Assembly (NCBI GenBank): GCA_963751455.1 | Contig: CAVVUN010000008.1 | Coordinates: 192,001 to 256,000, forward strand | Source of the DNA: Nitrospirota bacterium | Lineage (GTDB): Bacteria > Nitrospirota > UBA9217 | Reading direction: 5' to 3' | Length of the DNA: 64,000 nt | Shown here: piece after piece, positions 4,675 to 60,305 of the stretch | Position numbering within the stretch: the first letter of the stretch is position 1 | How the letters are laid out: the number at the start of each line of letters is the position of its first letter | Notes under the pieces: generated by a model | The model's database searches: none | Seen by the model: the letters and a program-made list of their open reading frames with translations, nothing else | Told to the model about the DNA's origin: nothing | Position numbers and translations under genes: made by a program

Positions 4675-4684
4675 TTTATAATAC

Positions 4685-48999: not shown

Positions 49000-49875
49000 T
49001 TACCCTGCAGGAGCGCACTGCTCTCGCCCCGGAGCCGCCCTCACCACCAGCACGCCGCAGCTTGCATGACCAATGACTTTTTCCGTTGAGCTCCCCATCA
49101 GGAGTTTTTTGAGGCCCGTTTTTCCGTACGTTCCCATAACGATCAGATCAACGCCCCGGCCCCCTGCTGTCTCAACGATAGCATTGTGAGACCTGCCGAT
49201 TGGAGTCAATGCTTCTACAGGTATGCCCTCCTTTTGCGCCATTTCAACAACTTGGTCGACATTTGCTCTTGCTTCCGGCAATTCCTGTTCGGAATGTACT
49301 GAGGAGAGCGCAATAATACTGCTTCCGCACCGTTTTGCGATCCCGATTGCCTCCGATGCCGCAGCAGCGCTGTGGCTTGACCCGTCCGTTGCAACCAGGA
49401 TGTTCCTGCATTCAATTTTTGCGGCCCGTGGAACAACAAGGACCTTGCAAGGCGCATGACTGATGACTCTTGCGGCCACACTCCCCATCAACACCTTCAT
49501 CAATCCGCTTCGGCCGCGTCTGCCGATAATTATCATGTCGGCCTTTCTATCAGCGGCCTCATCGACAATAGCCTGGCAAGGCTCTTCCTTGTAATCAAGG
49601 ATACTTTTACAAGTGGAAATGCCCTGTTGGGATGCCCTTGCTTTCACGGACTCAAGGTATTTTGTTGCTTCTTCCTCCTCTTTCTGATAAGCACTGGCCC
49701 CAATGGTCTCGTATTCGGGGTTTGTTTCAAGGACCGACATCACATAGAGTCTGCTTGAACATTTCTTTGAAAAATTTATTGCCTCCCGTACGGCCCCTTC
49801 GCTGAATCCGGAACGATCTGTTGCTAAAAGCAGGTTATCCAGTTTCGACAAAGGACAATATTGTGCAGAATTCAT
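49000..49875 (-). CDS. Tandem universal stress protein
   Basis: Two USP domains: 'GRRGRSG..MGSVA', 'GTYGKTG..MGSST'. Confidence 0.92.
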   Translation of the reverse strand: MNSAQYCPLSKLDNLLLATDRSGFSEGAVREAINFSKKCSSRLYVMSVLETNPEYETIGASAYQKEEEEATKYLESVKARASQQGISTCKSILDYKEEPCQAIVDEAADRKADMIIIGRRGRSGLMKVLMGSVAARVISHAPCKVLVVPRAAKIECRNILVATDGSSHSAAAASEAIGIAKRCGSSIIALSSVHSEQELPEARANVDQVVEMAQKEGIPVEALTPIGRSHNAIVETAGGRGVDLIVMGTYGKTGLKKLLMGSSTEKVIGHASCGVLVVRAAPGREQCAPAG

Positions 49876-53098: not shown

Positions 53099-53184
53099 AA
53101 CTCTTTTACCACAGAGTCACCGAGGACATTTTACGAATGTTTTTTTTCGCCGTCACGCAAGCTTCCTAATTTTTGGGTAGTGTC

Positions 53185-54021
53185 TCAGTTTGCTTTTTTA
53201 TCGATTAAGTCAACTATATCTTCCATAGTCCAAAGCCGATCGGTTAATTTTGCTTGCATGGCCGGTGTAATACTCAGCGATTTGTGAATCCGAACGAAAT
53301 TATAAAACATGAAATAGAGCGATAATACGTGATAGTGATTTTCCAGTTTCTTTGAAAAGGCGTTCGTCAACCGGGTAAATCGGCGCATACCCATACGCAT
53401 GTTTAAATTTTGCCTTTCTACATGGCTTGTAGATACAGCATTAATGTCAGGATTCCCGGCGATCCTTGTTTTCTCGGCTCCCACATATTTAGACGGGCTA
53501 TACCTTGTTTCTTTTTCAGCTACACTCTTGTATACCTTGACGAGTTGAGCGAAGTCAACATCAGAACCAAAAGCACTCTCTACGGCCTCCAAGTACATTT
53601 TATGGCCATCTGTAGTTAACTGGACACGGTTTTTAAGCCTTGAAGCTACGTCCTTCATGAACATAGTTGCGTTCTCAAGATCACGACTGCCTACATGCCA
53701 GGACACGATCAATTTTGAATCCGCGTCGATTGCTGTGAACGTCCAAACATCTCCATAGCCAAACACGTCTTTTTTATCTTCAGGAACGTTTTTTTCTTTC
53801 GAGTAACAAAAACTCCAAATCTCATCGGCCTGGACGCGCTTAACCGTCAATTCCTTCACATGCTCATTATGATAGACATTACATGCGGTCCCGGCGTCTA
53901 CCAGAAGTTTCGTTACCGTGTTGATCGAAACATCTGCGATCCGTGAGATAGACCGCATAGACGATCCTTCGCAAAGCATGTTTAGTATTTGGACTCGTTT
54001 ATTGATAGGCAGCTTGTTCAT
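53185..54021 (-). CDS. IS1-like DDE transposase with N-terminal HTH
   Basis: '[10 protein letters not shown]', 'QADEIWSF', 'TTDG', '[20 protein letters not shown]'; stop lies inside the TIR. Confidence 0.9.
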
Positions 54022-54082
54022 GATTATATTATATGAACTTTTTGCTTGAGTGTCAAGCATTATTTTCATATTGAAAAAGATC

Positions 54083-54116
54083 AAAAAAATAGGCTCTTTT
54101 AAACGAAGAGCCTACT
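54083..54116 (-). terminator. Intrinsic terminator of the cargo operon
   Basis: Minus strand TAGGCTCTT..AAGAGCCTA followed by T7. Confidence 0.75.
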
Positions 54117-54125
54117 CCTAACCAC

Positions 54126-54308
54126 CTAAAATAACATTTTGGCAGCTTTGGCTGTTTTTTGACATTGATTTTCGACTGCCTGCCCCCACTGTGAAGGAGT
54201 AGGAAATCCCATATGCGACACTTTTGGGAAAAATCTCTCCACTCCTTTATCGTTGCGATTCACCAATCGTTTTCTTTTCACTTCAATATGTTTTTTTAAT
54301 TTTCTCAT
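54126..54308 (-). CDS. 60-aa basic cargo peptide (MRKLKKHIEVKRKR...)
   Basis: AAGGAG RBS right after the protease stop; terminator follows. Confidence 0.65.
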   Translation of the reverse strand: MRKLKKHIEVKRKRLVNRNDKGVERFFPKVSHMGFPTPSQWGQAVENQCQKTAKAAKMLF

Positions 54309-54327
54309 TATGTGCTCCTTCCCCCTA

Positions 54328-55251
54328 CTACTCAAGATTGGGCGGCGGCGGCGCTCCATAGTTGTCTGTTGCAGACTCTATAATCTTTGAGGCTGTTGTA
54401 CTGACAACATAGTTAAGCCTAACGTAAATTTGCCAAATCAGTTTCCATATTTCAGAATTACTGTCATGCAATTTAATATTCAGGTCGCTTTTCTTTGCCA
54501 AATCATAATAGATTGGGCGTCCATGGGATATCGTTTGTTTAGGATCAAGAAAAGGCCTAATTTTTTGTTTGATCTTCTTTTCACTCCTCTTTTTAAGCAT
54601 ACCACTTTTTAGAGATGTTATTGCAATATTTTCTGAGAGTTTTTGAGCTGATTCAATTCCCCTCAAGTCTCGCGCATCATAACGCGCTAATTGCTGTAAA
54701 TACGGTTCTAGATTCCCCGTGGATTTATTCGCCTTACGAACTAATTCATCGTAACTTTCAAGAATTTCATGTGCAGCCTGATATCTGATCGGTCTTCCCC
54801 GATCATCACGTATTAAAATTTGAGGATCGATAGGACCAAGTTCGGAAGTTTTACTCATCCATATTTCATTCGCTCCCAAGCAAATCATCGTTGCGGCGGA
54901 TTTTGCCATTTTGGGAACAACTACAGTAAATTCATTATTGCTATAACTTCTGCAAATATTAACAACTCGTTCAGCGGCTAAAGCATCTCCTCCAGGACAG
55001 TTTAAAATCAAAACTAATTTTTTACCGTTCAGCGCTGTGTTGCTTAATACTTCTTCAAGCATATCAGCGTCCGTGTCTTCAAGAAGAACGGGAAAAGAAA
55101 AAGACGTGAAAAAAGAAACAATTTTATAATCTTTCAAAAAATTTTCTTCTAACTGTTTGTAAAGATCCTGCCGGGTGTTGTGCCTTTGGTGTACTTCATC
55201 TGCGATATGAGATAACGTATTCAGTCTTGTTTCTTTTGCATGGGTAAGCAT
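54328..55251 (-). CDS. SDH-family (ClpP/crotonase-fold) serine protease, cargo
   Basis: 'LILNCPGGD', 'VPKMAKSAATMICLGA', 'LGPIDPQ', 'SHGRPI'; AT-rich. Confidence 0.85.
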   Translation of the reverse strand: MLTHAKETRLNTLSHIADEVHQRHNTRQDLYKQLEENFLKDYKIVSFFTSFSFPVLLEDTDADMLEEVLSNTALNGKKLVLILNCPGGDALAAERVVNICRSYSNNEFTVVVPKMAKSAATMICLGANEIWMSKTSELGPIDPQILIRDDRGRPIRYQAAHEILESYDELVRKANKSTGNLEPYLQQLARYDARDLRGIESAQKLSENIAITSLKSGMLKKRSEKKIKQKIRPFLDPKQTISHGRPIYYDLAKKSDLNIKLHDSNSEIWKLIWQIYVRLNYVVSTTASKIIESATDNYGAPPPPNLE

Positions 55252-55298
55252 AAAGTATTATATCATGTTTCTTGTTGATAAGTAAACAGGAAAGATCG

Positions 55299-55523
55299 TC
55301 ATTTTCTCCACCGTGCCTTCGCCGCTTTTTTTGCTATCTCTTTCCGCTTTTTTGCAGGTAGTTTTTCTGCTCTAGCTCTTCCGCCTTTAAGCCCTCCCTG
55401 TCGGGAGAGCGTCTTGGTTTCGTCAACCTTCTCTTCAATCTCACCAGTTGCTATCTTGGCGATCTTGATTGCGGCCCCTATGACATCAGCGGGCCTCTTC
55501 TGTCCTTGCGGTCCTTTTGGCAT
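55299..55523 (-). CDS. Small basic element-associated protein (KGG-like)
   Basis: 'KRPADVIGAAIKIAKIATGE..GGLKGGRARAEKL..EIAKKAAKARW'. Confidence 0.8.
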   Translation of the reverse strand: MPKGPQGQKRPADVIGAAIKIAKIATGEIEEKVDETKTLSRQGGLKGGRARAEKLPAKKRKEIAKKAAKARWRK

Positions 55524-55837
55524 GAATCCATAATAGCATGATTCGGGCTTTTGCTCAACGGGGAAAATTTTCAAACTGAGACACTACCAATTTTTGCCCT
55601 TCGCAGCTTCTCACTCGTTCCATATTGAAACATGCTTCCTTGAAATATATATCTTCTCTTTTCCTTCCTATTGTTTTGATCACAGCATTTTCGAGTCGAT
55701 GAATACTGGTTAAAATTGTGTCCCGTCCGCTTGCACTTCTTCTCTTGATTTCCCATGTGTTCAAGGCCGTTCAAACCTGAAACAGCACTGATTTACTCCT
55801 TTTTAAAAATAGACTGTAAAAACGGTAGTTTGCCATT

Positions 55838-55892: not shown

Positions 55893-56390
55893 ATGGGAAA
55901 GAGGCAATTGTTGTTCGTCACGTATCGGGATGAAAATCTGGAAGAAGGCGTATCTTACGCAATCGAACTCGCAAAAGCCATGTATGAGGACATAACTTTG
56001 CTCCTCGTCAGAAAGAAAAGCAAGCTCATGGACAAGCTGGAGAACCTTATGACAGCCGTCACCTTTGCGGAGGCAGATGAGCATGACACTGCGCGGCAGA
56101 TCATGGCCGGGTCTCCGGGCGCAGCCGAAGAGTCCCAAAAAAAGATCGAGAAACTGGTACAAAAATGCGCCAACGAAGGCATCGCGGTGAAGGTAGAAGA
56201 CTCTGACCAGGAAGCGGTCTCGGGCATTCGTTCCTATCTGAAGAACCGCACAGGGATCGACAAGGTGGTTCTGAGTCCCGCGATTACCGAGGCCGGCAAT
56301 GTTACGGCTAAAGACCTGAACCGGCTCGTTCGGACCGCGTCGCGGCCGATAGTGACCATGACACGCCAGGCATCTGCGGTCGGAGCATAG
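55893..56390 (+). CDS. USP-like protein with internal FAE motif
   Basis: GGAGG RBS; 'LENLMTAVTFAEADEHDTARQIM'; ends 'SRPIVTM'. Confidence 0.8.
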   Translation: MGKRQLLFVTYRDENLEEGVSYAIELAKAMYEDITLLLVRKKSKLMDKLENLMTAVTFAEADEHDTARQIMAGSPGAAEESQKKIEKLVQKCANEGIAVKVEDSDQEAVSGIRSYLKNRTGIDKVVLSPAITEAGNVTAKDLNRLVRTASRPIVTMTRQASAVGA

Positions 56391-56490
56391 CAAAAGCCTG
56401 AATCGGTGTTGTTCCAGGTTCAGGGTTCCTGTTTCACCGGGTACCTGAGGACCCGGGGCAGCCGAAAAAATCCAATCAAAAGGAGCGAGA

Positions 56491-57420
56491 GTGATGTACT
56501 TGTATTTACCCGTAGCATTGACCAGCATCAACATCCTGATCCCGGTGGGGCTCGGGCTTGCCGTGGGCCTGCTTTCCGGCCTCTTCGGCGTGGGCGGTGG
56601 TTTTCTTTTGACCCCGCTTCTCATCATGTTCGGCATTCCATCCACAGTGGCGGCGGCAACGGATTCGAACCAGATAGTTGCCGCGTCCACCTCGGGCACC
56701 TATGCCCATTGGAAGGTCGGCAACGTGGACTTTAAGATGGGAATATATCTTCTCGTCGGCGGTTTCATCGGCGGCATCGTGGGTGTCCAGGCAATCAAGC
56801 TGCTCCATGCCATGGGCAACGCCGACTTCGTTATTAAAATGACCTATGTGCTCATGCTGGGCATCGTCGGCGTGTATATGTTCATCGAGAGCCTGCAGAG
56901 CATGCGCAAGAAAAAGGACGGTGCGGATCAGGATGTGAAACCGGAAAAGGAGTCGGCAGTAGGAAAATTTCTGAAGTCCCTGCCTCTCCAGACCCGTTTC
57001 GAGAAATCCGGCGTCTCACATTCCATACTGGTGCCAATCGTCCTGGGCGCTTTCGTGGGCGTGCTTGCCGCCATCATGGGAGTGGGCGGAGGGTTCCTGA
57101 TGGTCCCGGTGATGGTCTACATGCTCAGGATGCCGATGCACGTCGTGGTCGGCACCAGCCTGTTCCAGATCCTGTTCACCTGCATCGAGGTTACGTTCCT
57201 GCAGGCCTATACGAACCATAGCGTCGACTTTCTTCTTGCCGTGCTCCTTCTGATCGGATCGACCTTCGGGGCGCAGGTCGGCACGGTGCTGGGAAGAAAA
57301 CTCAAGGGAGAACAGCTTAAGATCCTTCTCGCAGGGATCGTGCTCGTCGTAACGGTCAAGATTGTATTCGAGCTGACGCTTACCCCGCCGCTGCTTCTCT
57401 CGCAAGTAGGAGGACATTAA
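56491..57420 (+). CDS. TauE/SafE family transporter
   Basis: 'YLYLPVA', 'GLLSGLFGVGGGFLLTP', 'IMGVGGGF'. Confidence 0.92.
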   Translation: MMYLYLPVALTSINILIPVGLGLAVGLLSGLFGVGGGFLLTPLLIMFGIPSTVAAATDSNQIVAASTSGTYAHWKVGNVDFKMGIYLLVGGFIGGIVGVQAIKLLHAMGNADFVIKMTYVLMLGIVGVYMFIESLQSMRKKKDGADQDVKPEKESAVGKFLKSLPLQTRFEKSGVSHSILVPIVLGAFVGVLAAIMGVGGGFLMVPVMVYMLRMPMHVVVGTSLFQILFTCIEVTFLQAYTNHSVDFLLAVLLLIGSTFGAQVGTVLGRKLKGEQLKILLAGIVLVVTVKIVFELTLTPPLLLSQVGGH

Positions 57421-58229
57421 TGAAGACGAAATTCAGCATTCAATATTCAATATTTAAAATTGGGTTGTTTCTTTTTCTTGAATTTTTAATTTTGAATTTT
57501 CAATTCGCCGGTACGGCGTCTGCAATGCTTACTGCGAAAGCCAATCATGATCACATCACCATCGATTTCTTCTATCACGGAAGCAGCGTGAGTATCAAGG
57601 GAGAATCTGACGCTAATGTTGATCTGGTCATCAAAATAACTTCTCCTGAAGGGCATCAGGTCCTGAAGCAGAAAGGCAAGGTTGCAGGTGCGCTGTGGAT
57701 GAATGTCGGGCAGCTCAAATTCGAGAACACCCCGAATTTCTACGGCTTGTACAGCACAAAAAAGATTGAAGATATCCTCACGCCGGAAGAAATGACCCGC
57801 TTCGTGATCGGATATCCCGCGCTCGAAAAGCATGTGGAGATATCTCCGGTCGCAAATGAGCAGGAGAGGGCAAAGTGGTTCGAGGAGTTCGTCAAGTTCA
57901 AGGAAGCCCAGAAGGTGTACGCCTACTCCCCGGGAACGATATCTACTACAACAAAGGCCGATGGCGGGCAAGAATATTATATTATGACTGCCTGGCCTTA
58001 CCAGGCCGCTCCCGGTGATTACCTGGTTTCGGTTTATGCGGTAAAGGACGGTAAGGTCGTGGAACAGGCCGAAGCAAAGGTGAATGTAGAGCAGGTAGGG
58101 CTTGTTAAAACACTCTCGACCCTGGCCAGAAACAACGCTGCCTTCTACGGTATCCTGTCTATCGGCATCGCGCTCTTCGCGGGTTTCGGCGTTGGGCTGG
58201 TGTTCGGAAAAGGTGGAGGTTCGCACTAA
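57420..58229 (+). CDS. TIGR02186-like protein (TauE partner)
   Basis: 'KQKGKVAGALWMN', 'PGDYLV', C-terminal TM; coupled to TauE. Confidence 0.8.
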   Translation: MKTKFSIQYSIFKIGLFLFLEFLILNFQFAGTASAMLTAKANHDHITIDFFYHGSSVSIKGESDANVDLVIKITSPEGHQVLKQKGKVAGALWMNVGQLKFENTPNFYGLYSTKKIEDILTPEEMTRFVIGYPALEKHVEISPVANEQERAKWFEEFVKFKEAQKVYAYSPGTISTTTKADGGQEYYIMTAWPYQAAPGDYLVSVYAVKDGKVVEQAEAKVNVEQVGLVKTLSTLARNNAAFYGILSIGIALFAGFGVGLVFGKGGGSH

Positions 58230-59083
58230 TGTATAAATCGATCGTTGTCGGATATGATGAATCGCTCTCGAGCAAGGCAGCCCTCAGAGAGGCCTCGCTC
58301 CGTATCAAGAAGCACGGGGGCGGCATAGTGCTGGTGCACGCCGTATTTTTTGATCAGGAAGAGTTTGCAATTCTGCCTTCGCAAATGGAAAAACGGTTCG
58401 AGTTCGGGACAAAGGTATGCGTCGAGGCAAAGAAGAACGTCGCGCAGGAGTTCGGCAGCGTCGAATCGTATGTCTGTGAAGGCGAGCCGCCCGAAGTGAT
58501 CGTTGAAACGGCAGAGGGGAAGAAGGCGGACCTGATCGCCTTGGGGACCTACGGCAGGAAGGGACTCAAGCGTCTCCTTATGGGCAGTGTCACGTCCCAG
58601 GTGATCCTCAATGCTCCGTGCGACGTTCTTGTCGTGAAAAAGGAGTGTACTACCTGCGGCGGTTCCTATGTATCGCTCCTCGTCCCTTTTGACGGATCGG
58701 ACGCCAGCAAAAAAGCGCTCGTGCGGGCGTGTGAGCTGTCAAAAAGCGACGGATCGGAGATATCGGTCCTGTACGTTATCCCCCGCTATGAAGAAATGAT
58801 GGACTTCTTCAAGACCGAAATGATAAAGAAAAGCCTCTACGAAGAGGCCGGAAAGATTGCCGAGCAGGCCAAGCAGATAGGCGAGGGACAGGGCGTTCGG
58901 ATCAAGGCGATCGTGCAGGAAGGCCACGCAAGCGACAAGATCCTGGAGATCGCCGACAAGTTCAAGAACGACCTCATCGTCATGGGCACCTATGGATGGC
59001 GCGGCATGGACAAGGCGATGATGGGGAGCACTGCAGAGCGGGTAATCGCCCATGGCACGTGCCCGATATTGATTGTGAAATAG
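58229..59083 (+). CDS. Tandem universal stress protein
   Basis: 'GTYGRKG..MGSVT', 'GTYGWRG..MGSTA'. Confidence 0.92.
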   Translation: MYKSIVVGYDESLSSKAALREASLRIKKHGGGIVLVHAVFFDQEEFAILPSQMEKRFEFGTKVCVEAKKNVAQEFGSVESYVCEGEPPEVIVETAEGKKADLIALGTYGRKGLKRLLMGSVTSQVILNAPCDVLVVKKECTTCGGSYVSLLVPFDGSDASKKALVRACELSKSDGSEISVLYVIPRYEEMMDFFKTEMIKKSLYEEAGKIAEQAKQIGEGQGVRIKAIVQEGHASDKILEIADKFKNDLIVMGTYGWRGMDKAMMGSTAERVIAHGTCPILIVK

Positions 59084-59194
59084 TCCTTAATCAGATGTTA
59101 GCCGCAGATTTCGCAGATGACGCAGATTTTTATTTAAAACATAAGCAAAAAGCGGCGAAATCTGCGTAATATGCGGATAGTGAGGGGCAGCGAC

Positions 59195-59617
59195 ATGAAG
59201 GGTTATAGAAAAGTGCTTATTGCATTGAACGGAAACAAAGGGGTCCTCGAACAGGGCATCAAACTTGCGCGGGACGAGAAAACCTGGATCACGGTTGTTA
59301 AAGTCATACGGCCTTTCGACGGAGACCTGAACCTGACGGGCATCAAGAACCTGAGCGACGTGCTTGACGACGGCGGCAATCGGGCTGTTCTGGACATCAA
59401 CAGGACAGCCGAAGCTGAAGGTGCCCTCGTTAAGACCCGCGTTGAGCAGGGTGATGTCCCGCAACGGATTATCGAGGTCGCCGAAGAAGAACAGTGCGAT
59501 CTGATTATTATGGGCTCCAAAAAGAAGAAGGGCATCCTGAGCAGATTGTTCGGAGACCATATTGTGGAAAAGGTCATAGATCAGGCCACATGCCCGGTAT
59601 ATATAGTTGCTCTCTAA
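59195..59617 (+). CDS. Universal stress protein
   Basis: 'YRKVLIALNG', 'DLIIMG', 'CPVYIV'. Confidence 0.88.
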   Translation: MKGYRKVLIALNGNKGVLEQGIKLARDEKTWITVVKVIRPFDGDLNLTGIKNLSDVLDDGGNRAVLDINRTAEAEGALVKTRVEQGDVPQRIIEVAEEEQCDLIIMGSKKKKGILSRLFGDHIVEKVIDQATCPVYIVAL

Positions 59618-59808
59618 CCATCTTAAATCAAACCTCCCTATTAAAGGGAGCCCTCCCGGTCAACCGCACGGCATAAAACTACTAACTTTAATTATCTTCT
59701 TAAAAACCTGAAGTTCTGATTCCAACTGCAGTAATATCTTGCGCCCCGGGTGCAGTAAATAAACCGCACTCCTCCTTCTAGCGTCTTGAAAATTAAGGCT
59801 GCATGCTC

Positions 59809-59824
59809 TGGCATGGCCCGTGCA
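59809..59824 (+). promoter_or_regulatory. sigma54 promoter
   Basis: TGGCATGGCCCGTGCA; NtrC-like TGCAG-N7-TTGCG near 59727. Confidence 0.55.
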
Positions 59825-59876
59825 ATAGAGGCGACTAGAAAGCAAAACAAATTCAATCCAAAAGGGAGGCACTACT

Positions 59877-60305
59877 ATGAAGATCATGGTTGCGTATGAC
59901 GGCACATTGCAGTCGAAGGAAGCTCTGGTGTACGGAATCGAGAAGGCGCATGAAAAAGGCGGCGAGGTCGTTGCGCTGCATGTATTAAACACCAACATGT
60001 TTATAGACTATGATGTTATGGATGCGGAAACCACGGCACGTAGCGAAGCCGGGCGGTTCGTTGAAGAAGCAAAAGCCTTGATCCGCGAGAAGGGAAAAGG
60101 CGTAAAAGCGAGCTTGTTCAGTACTGAGGGAAATCCTGAAGAGGAAATCGTAAGCTTTGCGAAGGACAAAAAAGCGGATATACTGCTTTGCCCGCCTAGA
60201 TTCAAGGGAATCATCAATAAATACCGGAAAGCATTGGGTGCGTCGGAGCTTGCCCGCGAGGCGGCAAAAATGGACCTCGCTGTGCTGTCGACGAAGACGA
60301 TGTAA
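59877..60305 (+). CDS. Universal stress protein
   Basis: 'KIMVAYDGT', 'EGNPEEEI'. Confidence 0.88.
   Translation: MKIMVAYDGTLQSKEALVYGIEKAHEKGGEVVALHVLNTNMFIDYDVMDAETTARSEAGRFVEEAKALIREKGKGVKASLFSTEGNPEEEIVSFAKDKKADILLCPPRFKGIINKYRKALGASELAREAAKMDLAVLSTKTM

Follow-up and report, generated by a model that had tools for sequence, protein, structure and literature searches.

The element and its genes

The stretch of DNA analysed here, the window, comprises 64,000 nucleotides of a Nitrospirota bacterium genome (contig CAVVUN010000008.1, positions 192,001 to 256,000). Window positions 53176-55588 form an intact IS1-family element of 2,413 bp, both terminal repeats included, which carries a protease gene and, directly behind it, a gene for a 60-residue peptide; this protease-peptide module is our main subject. 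The genes lie on the minus strand, in the order basic 74-residue open reading frame (ORF; 55299-55523), protease (54328-55251), peptide (54126-54308), a hairpin with a run of T (54085-54119) and transposase (53185-54021). The terminal inverted repeats at 53176-53192 (the transposase end, within which the transposase stop codon falls) and 55572-55588 (the basic-gene end) are complementary at 17 of 17 nt, and the 8-bp target-site duplication AATTTTTG stands on both sides, at 53168-53175 and 55589-55596. In the 5.7-Mb genome the exact repeat occurs three times, or four times if one mismatch is allowed, and all four matches are ends of two elements. The insertion point lies between a response-regulator gene and the next ORF, neither of which is interrupted.

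The initial annotation of this DNA had described perfect 17-bp repeats with an 8-bp duplication, enclosing a transposase, a small basic protein and an AT-rich cassette, and all of these are present; G+C content is 38% in the cassette and 41% over the element, against 50.5% for the window. Its terminator held up in part. The hairpin and T-run are predicted to be an intrinsic terminator closing the protease-peptide unit, and a sister element, L016, has a different hairpin and T-run at the matching position, but the terminator scan by itself was not above chance (2 found, 2.4 expected).

The protease

The 307-residue protease matches Pfam family PF01972 with 46.8 bits, above the cut-off of 31.3, and phrog_11747 with an E value of 7e-44, while its 59.5 bits against the NCBIfam SDH equivalog NF047768 fall far below the cut-off of 250. 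The motifs AKSAAT, PIDPQ and SHGRP begin at residues 116, 140 and 242 and contain the predicted catalytic residues S118 (codon 54898-54900), D142 (54826-54828) and H243 (54523-54525). Of the 3,735 homologues at E<=0.001, the best 120 all keep the three residues; a broader set of 63 keeps S118 and D142 throughout, and H243 with at least 90% conservation. In alignment, the S118 motif falls on the ASA motif of protease 1510-N. An AlphaFold model of the protease (mean predicted local confidence, pLDDT, 94) is nearest to ClpP (Z 12.8), SppA (11.5) and 1510-N (10.8), at 13-18% identity, and among viral models it is nearest to giant-virus SDH proteins; no close solved structure was found, the best sequence match having an E value of 0.028. 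By sequence and model, the window protease is thus an SDH ClpP-fold serine proteinase with predicted proteolytic activity, as its Ser, Asp and His motifs had led the initial annotation to propose. Identity with phage head-maturation proteases was considered and rejected: the matches are weak and below cut-off, and the element contains no phage genes. Since neither the protease nor the peptide has a hydrophobic segment, both are probably cytoplasmic.

The partner peptide and its pairing with the protease

The peptide is basic (isoelectric point 10.8), carries the family motif F26...W41 and has its own Shine-Dalgarno sequence, AAGGAG, at 54315-54320. In L016 the peptide, 45% identical in a 56-residue frame, has the same start and a Shine-Dalgarno sequence. 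A 77-residue reading from an upstream ATG was rejected because relatives begin at the ATG of the 60-residue frame, behind a Shine-Dalgarno sequence. The basic peptide with its own ribosome-binding site, as originally annotated, is therefore the form retained here.

We collected 81 loci with related proteases (43-69% identity), some of them near-duplicates and 10 not evaluable owing to a contig end or a partial match. Directly behind 68 of the 71 evaluable proteases lies an ORF of 45-90 residues, and an ORF with a net charge of at least +3 lies behind 57 of the 71, against 239 of 1,600 random positions. As for the three exceptions, two are premature-stop protease loci that still have the peptide, and the third has it in a longer frame. 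One counted ORF, at L143, belongs to a small insert, and the true peptide lies behind it. This insert, of about 240 bp and some 890-1130 nt past the start of the protease match, resembles a miniature inverted-repeat transposable element, has ends like terminal inverted repeats and leaves both genes intact.

A profile built from 63 of the peptides matches 521 clusters (clustered at 50% identity), and all of the top 150 are 46-95 residues long. Among 213 aligned peptides W41 is invariant and the (P)F motif is about 90% conserved. Pooled over nine pairs, whose synonymous sites are close to saturated, the ratio of non-synonymous to synonymous substitution (dN/dS) comes to 0.25 in the peptide against 0.10 in the protease; by this measure the peptide is under purifying selection. 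Distances among proteases and among peptides are correlated (Mantel rho 0.73, with none of 999 permutations as high, on a quick tree); judged from these distances, the correlation shows co-inheritance of the two, not binding. An SDH match is present in 31 of 401 genomes from the phylum, with five places at E<1e-60, and the peptide occurs at four places, each time right behind the protease or its C-terminal remnant. The protease and peptide genes are thus adjacent and co-inherited, in one predicted transcription unit, and the module is real and widespread. Whether the pair is conserved had been left as a check by the initial annotation, and these counts answer it in the affirmative.

The peptide has no match in Pfam, NCBIfam, PADLOC or PHROG and no usable match in the protein atlas. 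Its fold model is weak (predicted template modelling score, pTM, 0.30), with a helix, an extended segment and a second helix. Fused protease-peptide forms were absent among longer proteins at E<=1e-30, which is weak evidence. A 5-nt Shine-Dalgarno sequence precedes 27 of 62 peptides and 10 of 62 proteases, with start sites chosen by script.

An exchangeable slot in a conserved chassis

The transposase, a single ORF of 278 residues with a predicted N-terminal helix-turn-helix (HTH), matches Pfam DDE_Tnp_IS1 (PF03400) with 28.3 bits, above the cut-off of 24.1; its best NCBIfam match, NF033558, reaches 66.5 bits, below the cut-off of 100. Close homologues carry the annotation 'IS1 family transposase', the closest of them in Nitrospirota records. 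Subgroups of IS1 are distinguished by the layout of zinc finger and HTH at the N-terminus, where this transposase has weak HTH matches and no zinc-finger match in Pfam. The 74-residue basic protein is automatically annotated as 'histone H1' or 'RNA-binding protein', and its protein-atlas matches are to unnamed or 'RNA-binding protein' clusters only. Its C-terminal motif (window 55299-55400) matches the N-terminus of phrog_2384, a family of P63C-domain proteins, which are the commonest cargo of related elements (L022:3982-4953 and seven other cargo ORFs).

The same genome holds a sister element, L007 (C2:524235-527198, 2,964 bp), with its own 8-bp duplication. The two copies share 83% identity across the basic gene and across the transposase plus its promoter, and their transposases are 89% identical; between these parts they are unrelated, the slot of L007 holding other ORFs and a tRNA-like gene. 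The latter, at element positions 1041-1114, resembles tRNA-Ser with anticodon ACT and lies between two cargo ORFs; ARAGORN finds tRNA-like genes in 13 of 74 elements. In the window element it finds no RNA gene, and the single Rfam match there (E 0.53) is far under threshold.

From transposase-positive loci we delimited 73 elements, leaving out loci without both ends and the mis-delimited L038, L067 and L075; removal of five duplicates and of L097, which was unscanned, gives 67 distinct elements. These are 1.9-5.9 kb long, and 58 have the basic gene and 53 the 8-bp duplication. The 161 cargo ORFs of at least 90 residues in the 73 elements fall into 120 clusters, and cargo types are scattered across the transposase tree. 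On that tree the window element, the sister copy, L015 and L016 form one clade with 100% support and three cargo states, while the protease-peptide module sits on seven transposases and needs five changes, two of them forced by well-supported branches. Given the different cargo of the sister copy, the three states within one clade and the changes of the module on the tree, the cargo slot is exchangeable within a fixed chassis. We infer that exchange occurs by recombination between the conserved flanking genes. There is indirect evidence that the element moves as one unit, cargo included: the duplication surrounds the whole, and a single relative carries four copies, equal in length and layout, at separate sites (L078, L080-L082), three of these copies having an 8-bp duplication. 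Elsewhere, L043:5927-6877, L062:4074-4442 and L023 have nested or partial transposases of other kinds (IS1595-type, DDE_Tnp_1) or additional cargo on the left side of the basic gene.

The Pfam and PADLOC scans covered 149 of the 161 cargo ORFs, and as a control we took 149 ORFs flanking the same elements (those up to L070). At E<=1e-15, PADLOC matches 24 of the 149 cargo ORFs and 6 of the 149 flanking ORFs (Fisher p 0.0008; the elements are kin and so not independent, and some PADLOC models are unvalidated candidates). The cargo pool is thereby shown to be biased towards defence models. RosmerTA is carried by L011, L036 and L073, and RmrA alone by L086. Further cargo includes six PD-lambda-2B-like peptidases, four Panacea antitoxins, eight P63C proteins and five SDH proteases, and there are matches to IetAS, AbiD, SoFic (two), a BglII-type restriction pair, PIN, MazF, HigB, MqsA with SecB, and RhuM; many cargo ORFs match nothing in Pfam or PADLOC. 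In two elements, at L010:3681-3887 and in L047 ahead of position 4680, a distant SDH protease in reverse orientation has a small ORF on its upstream and not its downstream side. The fixed chassis with an exchangeable slot, and the defence enrichment that was to be sought in it, both go back to the initial annotation, which had also named uniform or absent cargo and an unconserved peptide as outcomes that would tell against it; neither is seen in the related elements and loci. The lineage amounts to a compact, end-delimited collection of defence cargo in which most of the 120 clusters belong to no named family, and these unnamed clusters can serve at once as candidates in the search for new defence systems.

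Promoters, target sites and flanks

The predicted transposase promoter (54028-54056, minus strand) is a perfect sigma-70 consensus, TTGACA-17-TATAAT, with its -10 box 6 nt before the ATG, so that the transcript is predicted to be leaderless. The protease is preceded by a promoter-like site, TTTACT-18-TATAAT (55257-55286), with its -10 box 5 nt before the ATG, and the basic gene by another (55530-55558), just inside the left repeat; both are consensus matches only. Ahead of the transposase, protease and basic gene (starts at 54021, 55251 and 55523) there is in each case a -10-like hexamer 5-6 nt from the ATG and no Shine-Dalgarno sequence, which suggests that their transcripts may be leaderless. 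An imperfect palindrome, TGCTTGA...TCAAGCA (54031-54071), overlaps the transposase promoter and is conserved upstream of many related transposases, and in some relatives the promoter of the basic gene bears a related motif; by its appearance the palindrome is a candidate operator.

Among the 116 sides of 58 rebuilt target sites of related elements, 22 have a TTGACA-like hexamer that begins exactly 7 nt away from the duplication, the mean count for other offsets being 1.35. Because of this enrichment the lineage is taken, from the rebuilt sites, to prefer positions just 5' of -35 boxes. The window's own target site (53155-53167) has TTG at the 7-nt offset, the hexamer matching at 3 of 6 positions only. 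Around the element, at 49000-49875 and 55893-60305, ORFs resembling universal stress proteins and a gene resembling a sulfite-exporter membrane protein surround a two-component system (names given by eye). A weak transposase remnant at G000 C1:232656-234888, with a sequence that resembles the terminal repeat at three mismatches, is possibly a decayed relative.

The module outside this element

The basic gene or the transposase lies near the module in 23 of 80 metagenome loci, mainly in the protease clade to which the window belongs, and L156 (with an 8-bp duplication) and L148 are transposase-free versions between the same ends. Among repeat-bounded carriers around stand-alone pairs, only this type of insertion sequence (IS) turned up, at four loci. 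A distant protease clade (29% identical) lies directly behind the repressor of E. coli lambdoid prophages, with a 56-residue ORF of its own; near-complete copies occur in 17 of 5,426 E. coli genomes, and the E. coli prophage pair is represented by WP_021518647.1 with WP_167851737.1. Of 28 related viral loci, 27 have an ORF of 53-69 residues behind the protease, the 28th ending at a contig edge, and a repressor-like gene, judged by eye, is often upstream. The E. coli-type peptide is phrog_28875, a PHROG of unknown function. No homology was found between it and the window-type peptide (probability 0.06-0.12, within the range of 40 column-shuffled controls), so we treat the two types as analogous only. 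Besides the position behind the repressor, distant relatives occupy other prophage accessory slots, between Q and holin, beside an integrase and beside HicAB, and some SDH genes end ubiquitin-like operons; several of these genes have no downstream peptide. At L211:496-3786 and L214:453-3810, distant SDH proteases end operons of multi-ubiquitin, E2, ThiF-E1 and DUF6527 (Bub-like) genes.

A possible toxin and its inhibitor

The peptide frame is intact at seven inspected loci whose protease is broken or missing. Four are in the window's family (L132, L181 with a TAA before S118, L219 and L249) and three in the distant E. coli clade, where the protease is interrupted by an inserted IS (L288), split (L289) or deleted (L287), the intact peptide of L287 lying directly behind the prophage repressor gene. 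None of the inspected loci has the reverse state of an intact protease with a broken peptide. This suggests that the peptide may be tolerated alone, which argues against a toxic peptide, and, because the peptide persists without a working protease, an inhibitor is favoured over a toxic substrate. Taken with the stronger Shine-Dalgarno sequence of the peptide and the leaderless-looking protease, the broken loci favour a reading in which the protease may be a toxin checked by a peptide inhibitor, serving phage defence or maintenance of the element. The conserved pairing, the defence bias of the cargo pool and the prophage accessory slots of distant relatives also speak for it, and IetAS offers a precedent for a toxin that is a serine protease. 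We hold this reading tentatively, rating it almost as likely right as wrong.

Under such a reading the module would be a defence system of toxin-antitoxin type, the protease being harmful and the peptide its inhibitor. The peptide would be made in excess from its own ribosome-binding site and would bind the protease, probably by placing its conserved F...W segment in or across the substrate groove. Loss or displacement of the peptide, for instance when a phage infects, would free the protease to cut a cytoplasmic target, and the cell would arrest; this arrest would block the spread of phage and keep the element from being lost.

Several observations weigh against a protease toxin with its inhibitor. 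The protease is a five-fold larger target for mutation, so that seven broken out of seven has p 0.28, which is not significant, and the decay pattern is therefore no proof of protease toxicity; moreover, the decayed loci were gathered with protease queries, and stop codons in metagenomes may be errors. The protease comes first in the gene order, and the peptide has no recognised DNA-binding domain. One of the nine pairs used for dN/dS, that of the nearly identical L138 and L157, has a ratio of non-synonymous to synonymous differences (pN/pS) above 1. Many other SDH proteases, including most of 26 weaker loci in the phylum, L002, L209 and L214, have no such downstream peptide, so the SDH class does not always need an antidote. 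Outside the IS, the pairs mostly stand alone among housekeeping genes: PADLOC matches 6 of 133 neighbours from 30 stand-alone loci, two of these being an ankyrin-type protein and a group II intron reverse transcriptase. Such sparse defence neighbours count against a system of defence islands and fit a self-contained module. Finally, no family in PADLOC-DB 2.0.0, which dates from 2023 and is older than newer catalogues, matches the protease or the peptide at E<=0.1.

What else might the pair be? The peptide could be an activator, adaptor or structural subunit of a complex that does the host no harm and directly cleaves a protein of an incoming phage or plasmid, a non-suicidal form of exclusion. 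The strict pairing and the positions in defence slots would be just as expected, orphan peptides would be harmless here too, and the weak likeness of the protease to head-maturation proteases would fit cleavage of a virion protein. Two features, however, are not predicted, namely the stronger ribosome-binding site of the peptide and the lack of protease-only loci; both are weak evidence, and we consider an activating peptide unlikely, though the least unlikely of the alternatives. The peptide might instead be a dedicated substrate, cleaved to free a toxin or signal, or a toxic peptide that the protease continually destroys, as in RosmerTA. Modules of the RosmerTA type are often found as cargo in these elements, and the extended conserved segment between the two peptide helices could be a cleavage site. 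The intact peptides without a working protease, that of L287 included, argue against a constitutively toxic peptide but not against release activated by the protease, and overall we give a substrate role little credence. Equally little is given to the proposal that the pair has no anti-phage role and is a selfish addiction module or a hitch-hiking accessory of stress response or protein quality control: the lack of a PADLOC match for the pair, the stand-alone copies with few defence neighbours and the many cargo ORFs without a known family all agree with it, but it sits poorly with the enrichment of defence models in cargo over flanks and with the recurrence of the distant clade in prophage accessory slots.

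The toxin-inhibitor reading can be widened, a step in which our confidence is a shade lower again. SDH ClpP-fold proteases with short dedicated peptides may form a widespread, undescribed anti-phage class of protease toxins and peptide antitoxins, whose clades would have recruited unrelated inhibitors of about 55-70 residues and would have spread on the IS1 lineage that ferries defence genes and, in lambdoid prophages (those of E. coli included), in the slot next to the repressor. If a toxin and its inhibitor are indeed what the module encodes, bacterial immunity gains a ClpP-fold toxin and a new peptide inhibitor of proteases. PF01972 proteases are common, and a peptide that is conserved and under selection, together with a version in E. 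coli prophages, makes function directly testable.

Comparison with known systems

Insertion sequences with passenger genes, the transporter IS, are said to have been originally described by Siguier et al. in 2009. The window lineage shares with transporter IS, a concept that PMC3129680 sets out, GGTA-type terminal repeats, an 8-bp duplication, an IS1-family DDE transposase, passenger genes within one pair of ends, and the occurrence of transposase-free versions with the same ends (L156, L148). It differs from the transporter IS of the IS1 family in its single-ORF transposase with a predicted HTH, no zinc-finger match and a score below the NCBIfam IS1 cut-off, in a small basic gene that is nearly fixed, in as many as three slots for cargo and the bias of that cargo towards defence, and in favouring target sites that lie 7 nt from a -35-like hexamer. 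By its ends and transposase, the window element is a member of the IS1 family, a variant of a known passenger-carrying kind.

With the SDH ClpP-fold proteinases (PF01972, NF047768, phrog_11747) the window protease has in common a score above the Pfam cut-off, the Ser-Asp-His order and the ClpP/SppA/1510-N fold (Z 10.8-12.8). Unlike those of NF047768, it falls below the equivalog cut-off and has a dedicated peptide that is unnamed in the libraries searched. We found no paper that assigns a biological role to PF01972 proteases, and no literature on the SDH protease-peptide module or on the defence cargo of this IS lineage, in a search whose coverage did not extend to subscription journals or the supplementary tables of defence screens, which may list such families; the module is apparently undescribed. 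The Bub ubiquitin-like operons were rejected as a functional precedent, their serine protease being described, in the accessible part of the Bub paper, as DUF6527 and not SDH. SDH proteases are not mentioned in that part of its main text, nor discussed in the accessible part of the Porphyromonas phage paper.

Three known systems bear some likeness to the pair. RosmerTA and PD-lambda-2 combine an HTH-M78 metallopeptidase with a small partner, the zinc metallopeptidase with HTH being the antitoxin. They resemble the window pair as a protease with a small partner in the same slot of sister elements, but the fold is unrelated and the direction is opposite to that of a protease toxin checked by its peptide. 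To lambda RexAB, an exclusion locus, the likeness is positional only, the distant protease-peptide clade lying directly behind the prophage repressor; none of the libraries points to a relationship in sequence. In IetAS, a toxin-antitoxin and anti-phage pair, the toxin is a serine protease whose activity is required for defence (PMC13069673). There too, as would hold for the window pair, two genes form the module and the serine protease is the toxin, and IetAS is also cargo of this IS lineage (L054). IetS is much larger (748 residues in L054) and has no PF01972 match, its antitoxin is an AAA ATPase, and the window pair has no PADLOC match to IetS or IetA. With these differences, IetAS is the nearest functional precedent for the window pair.

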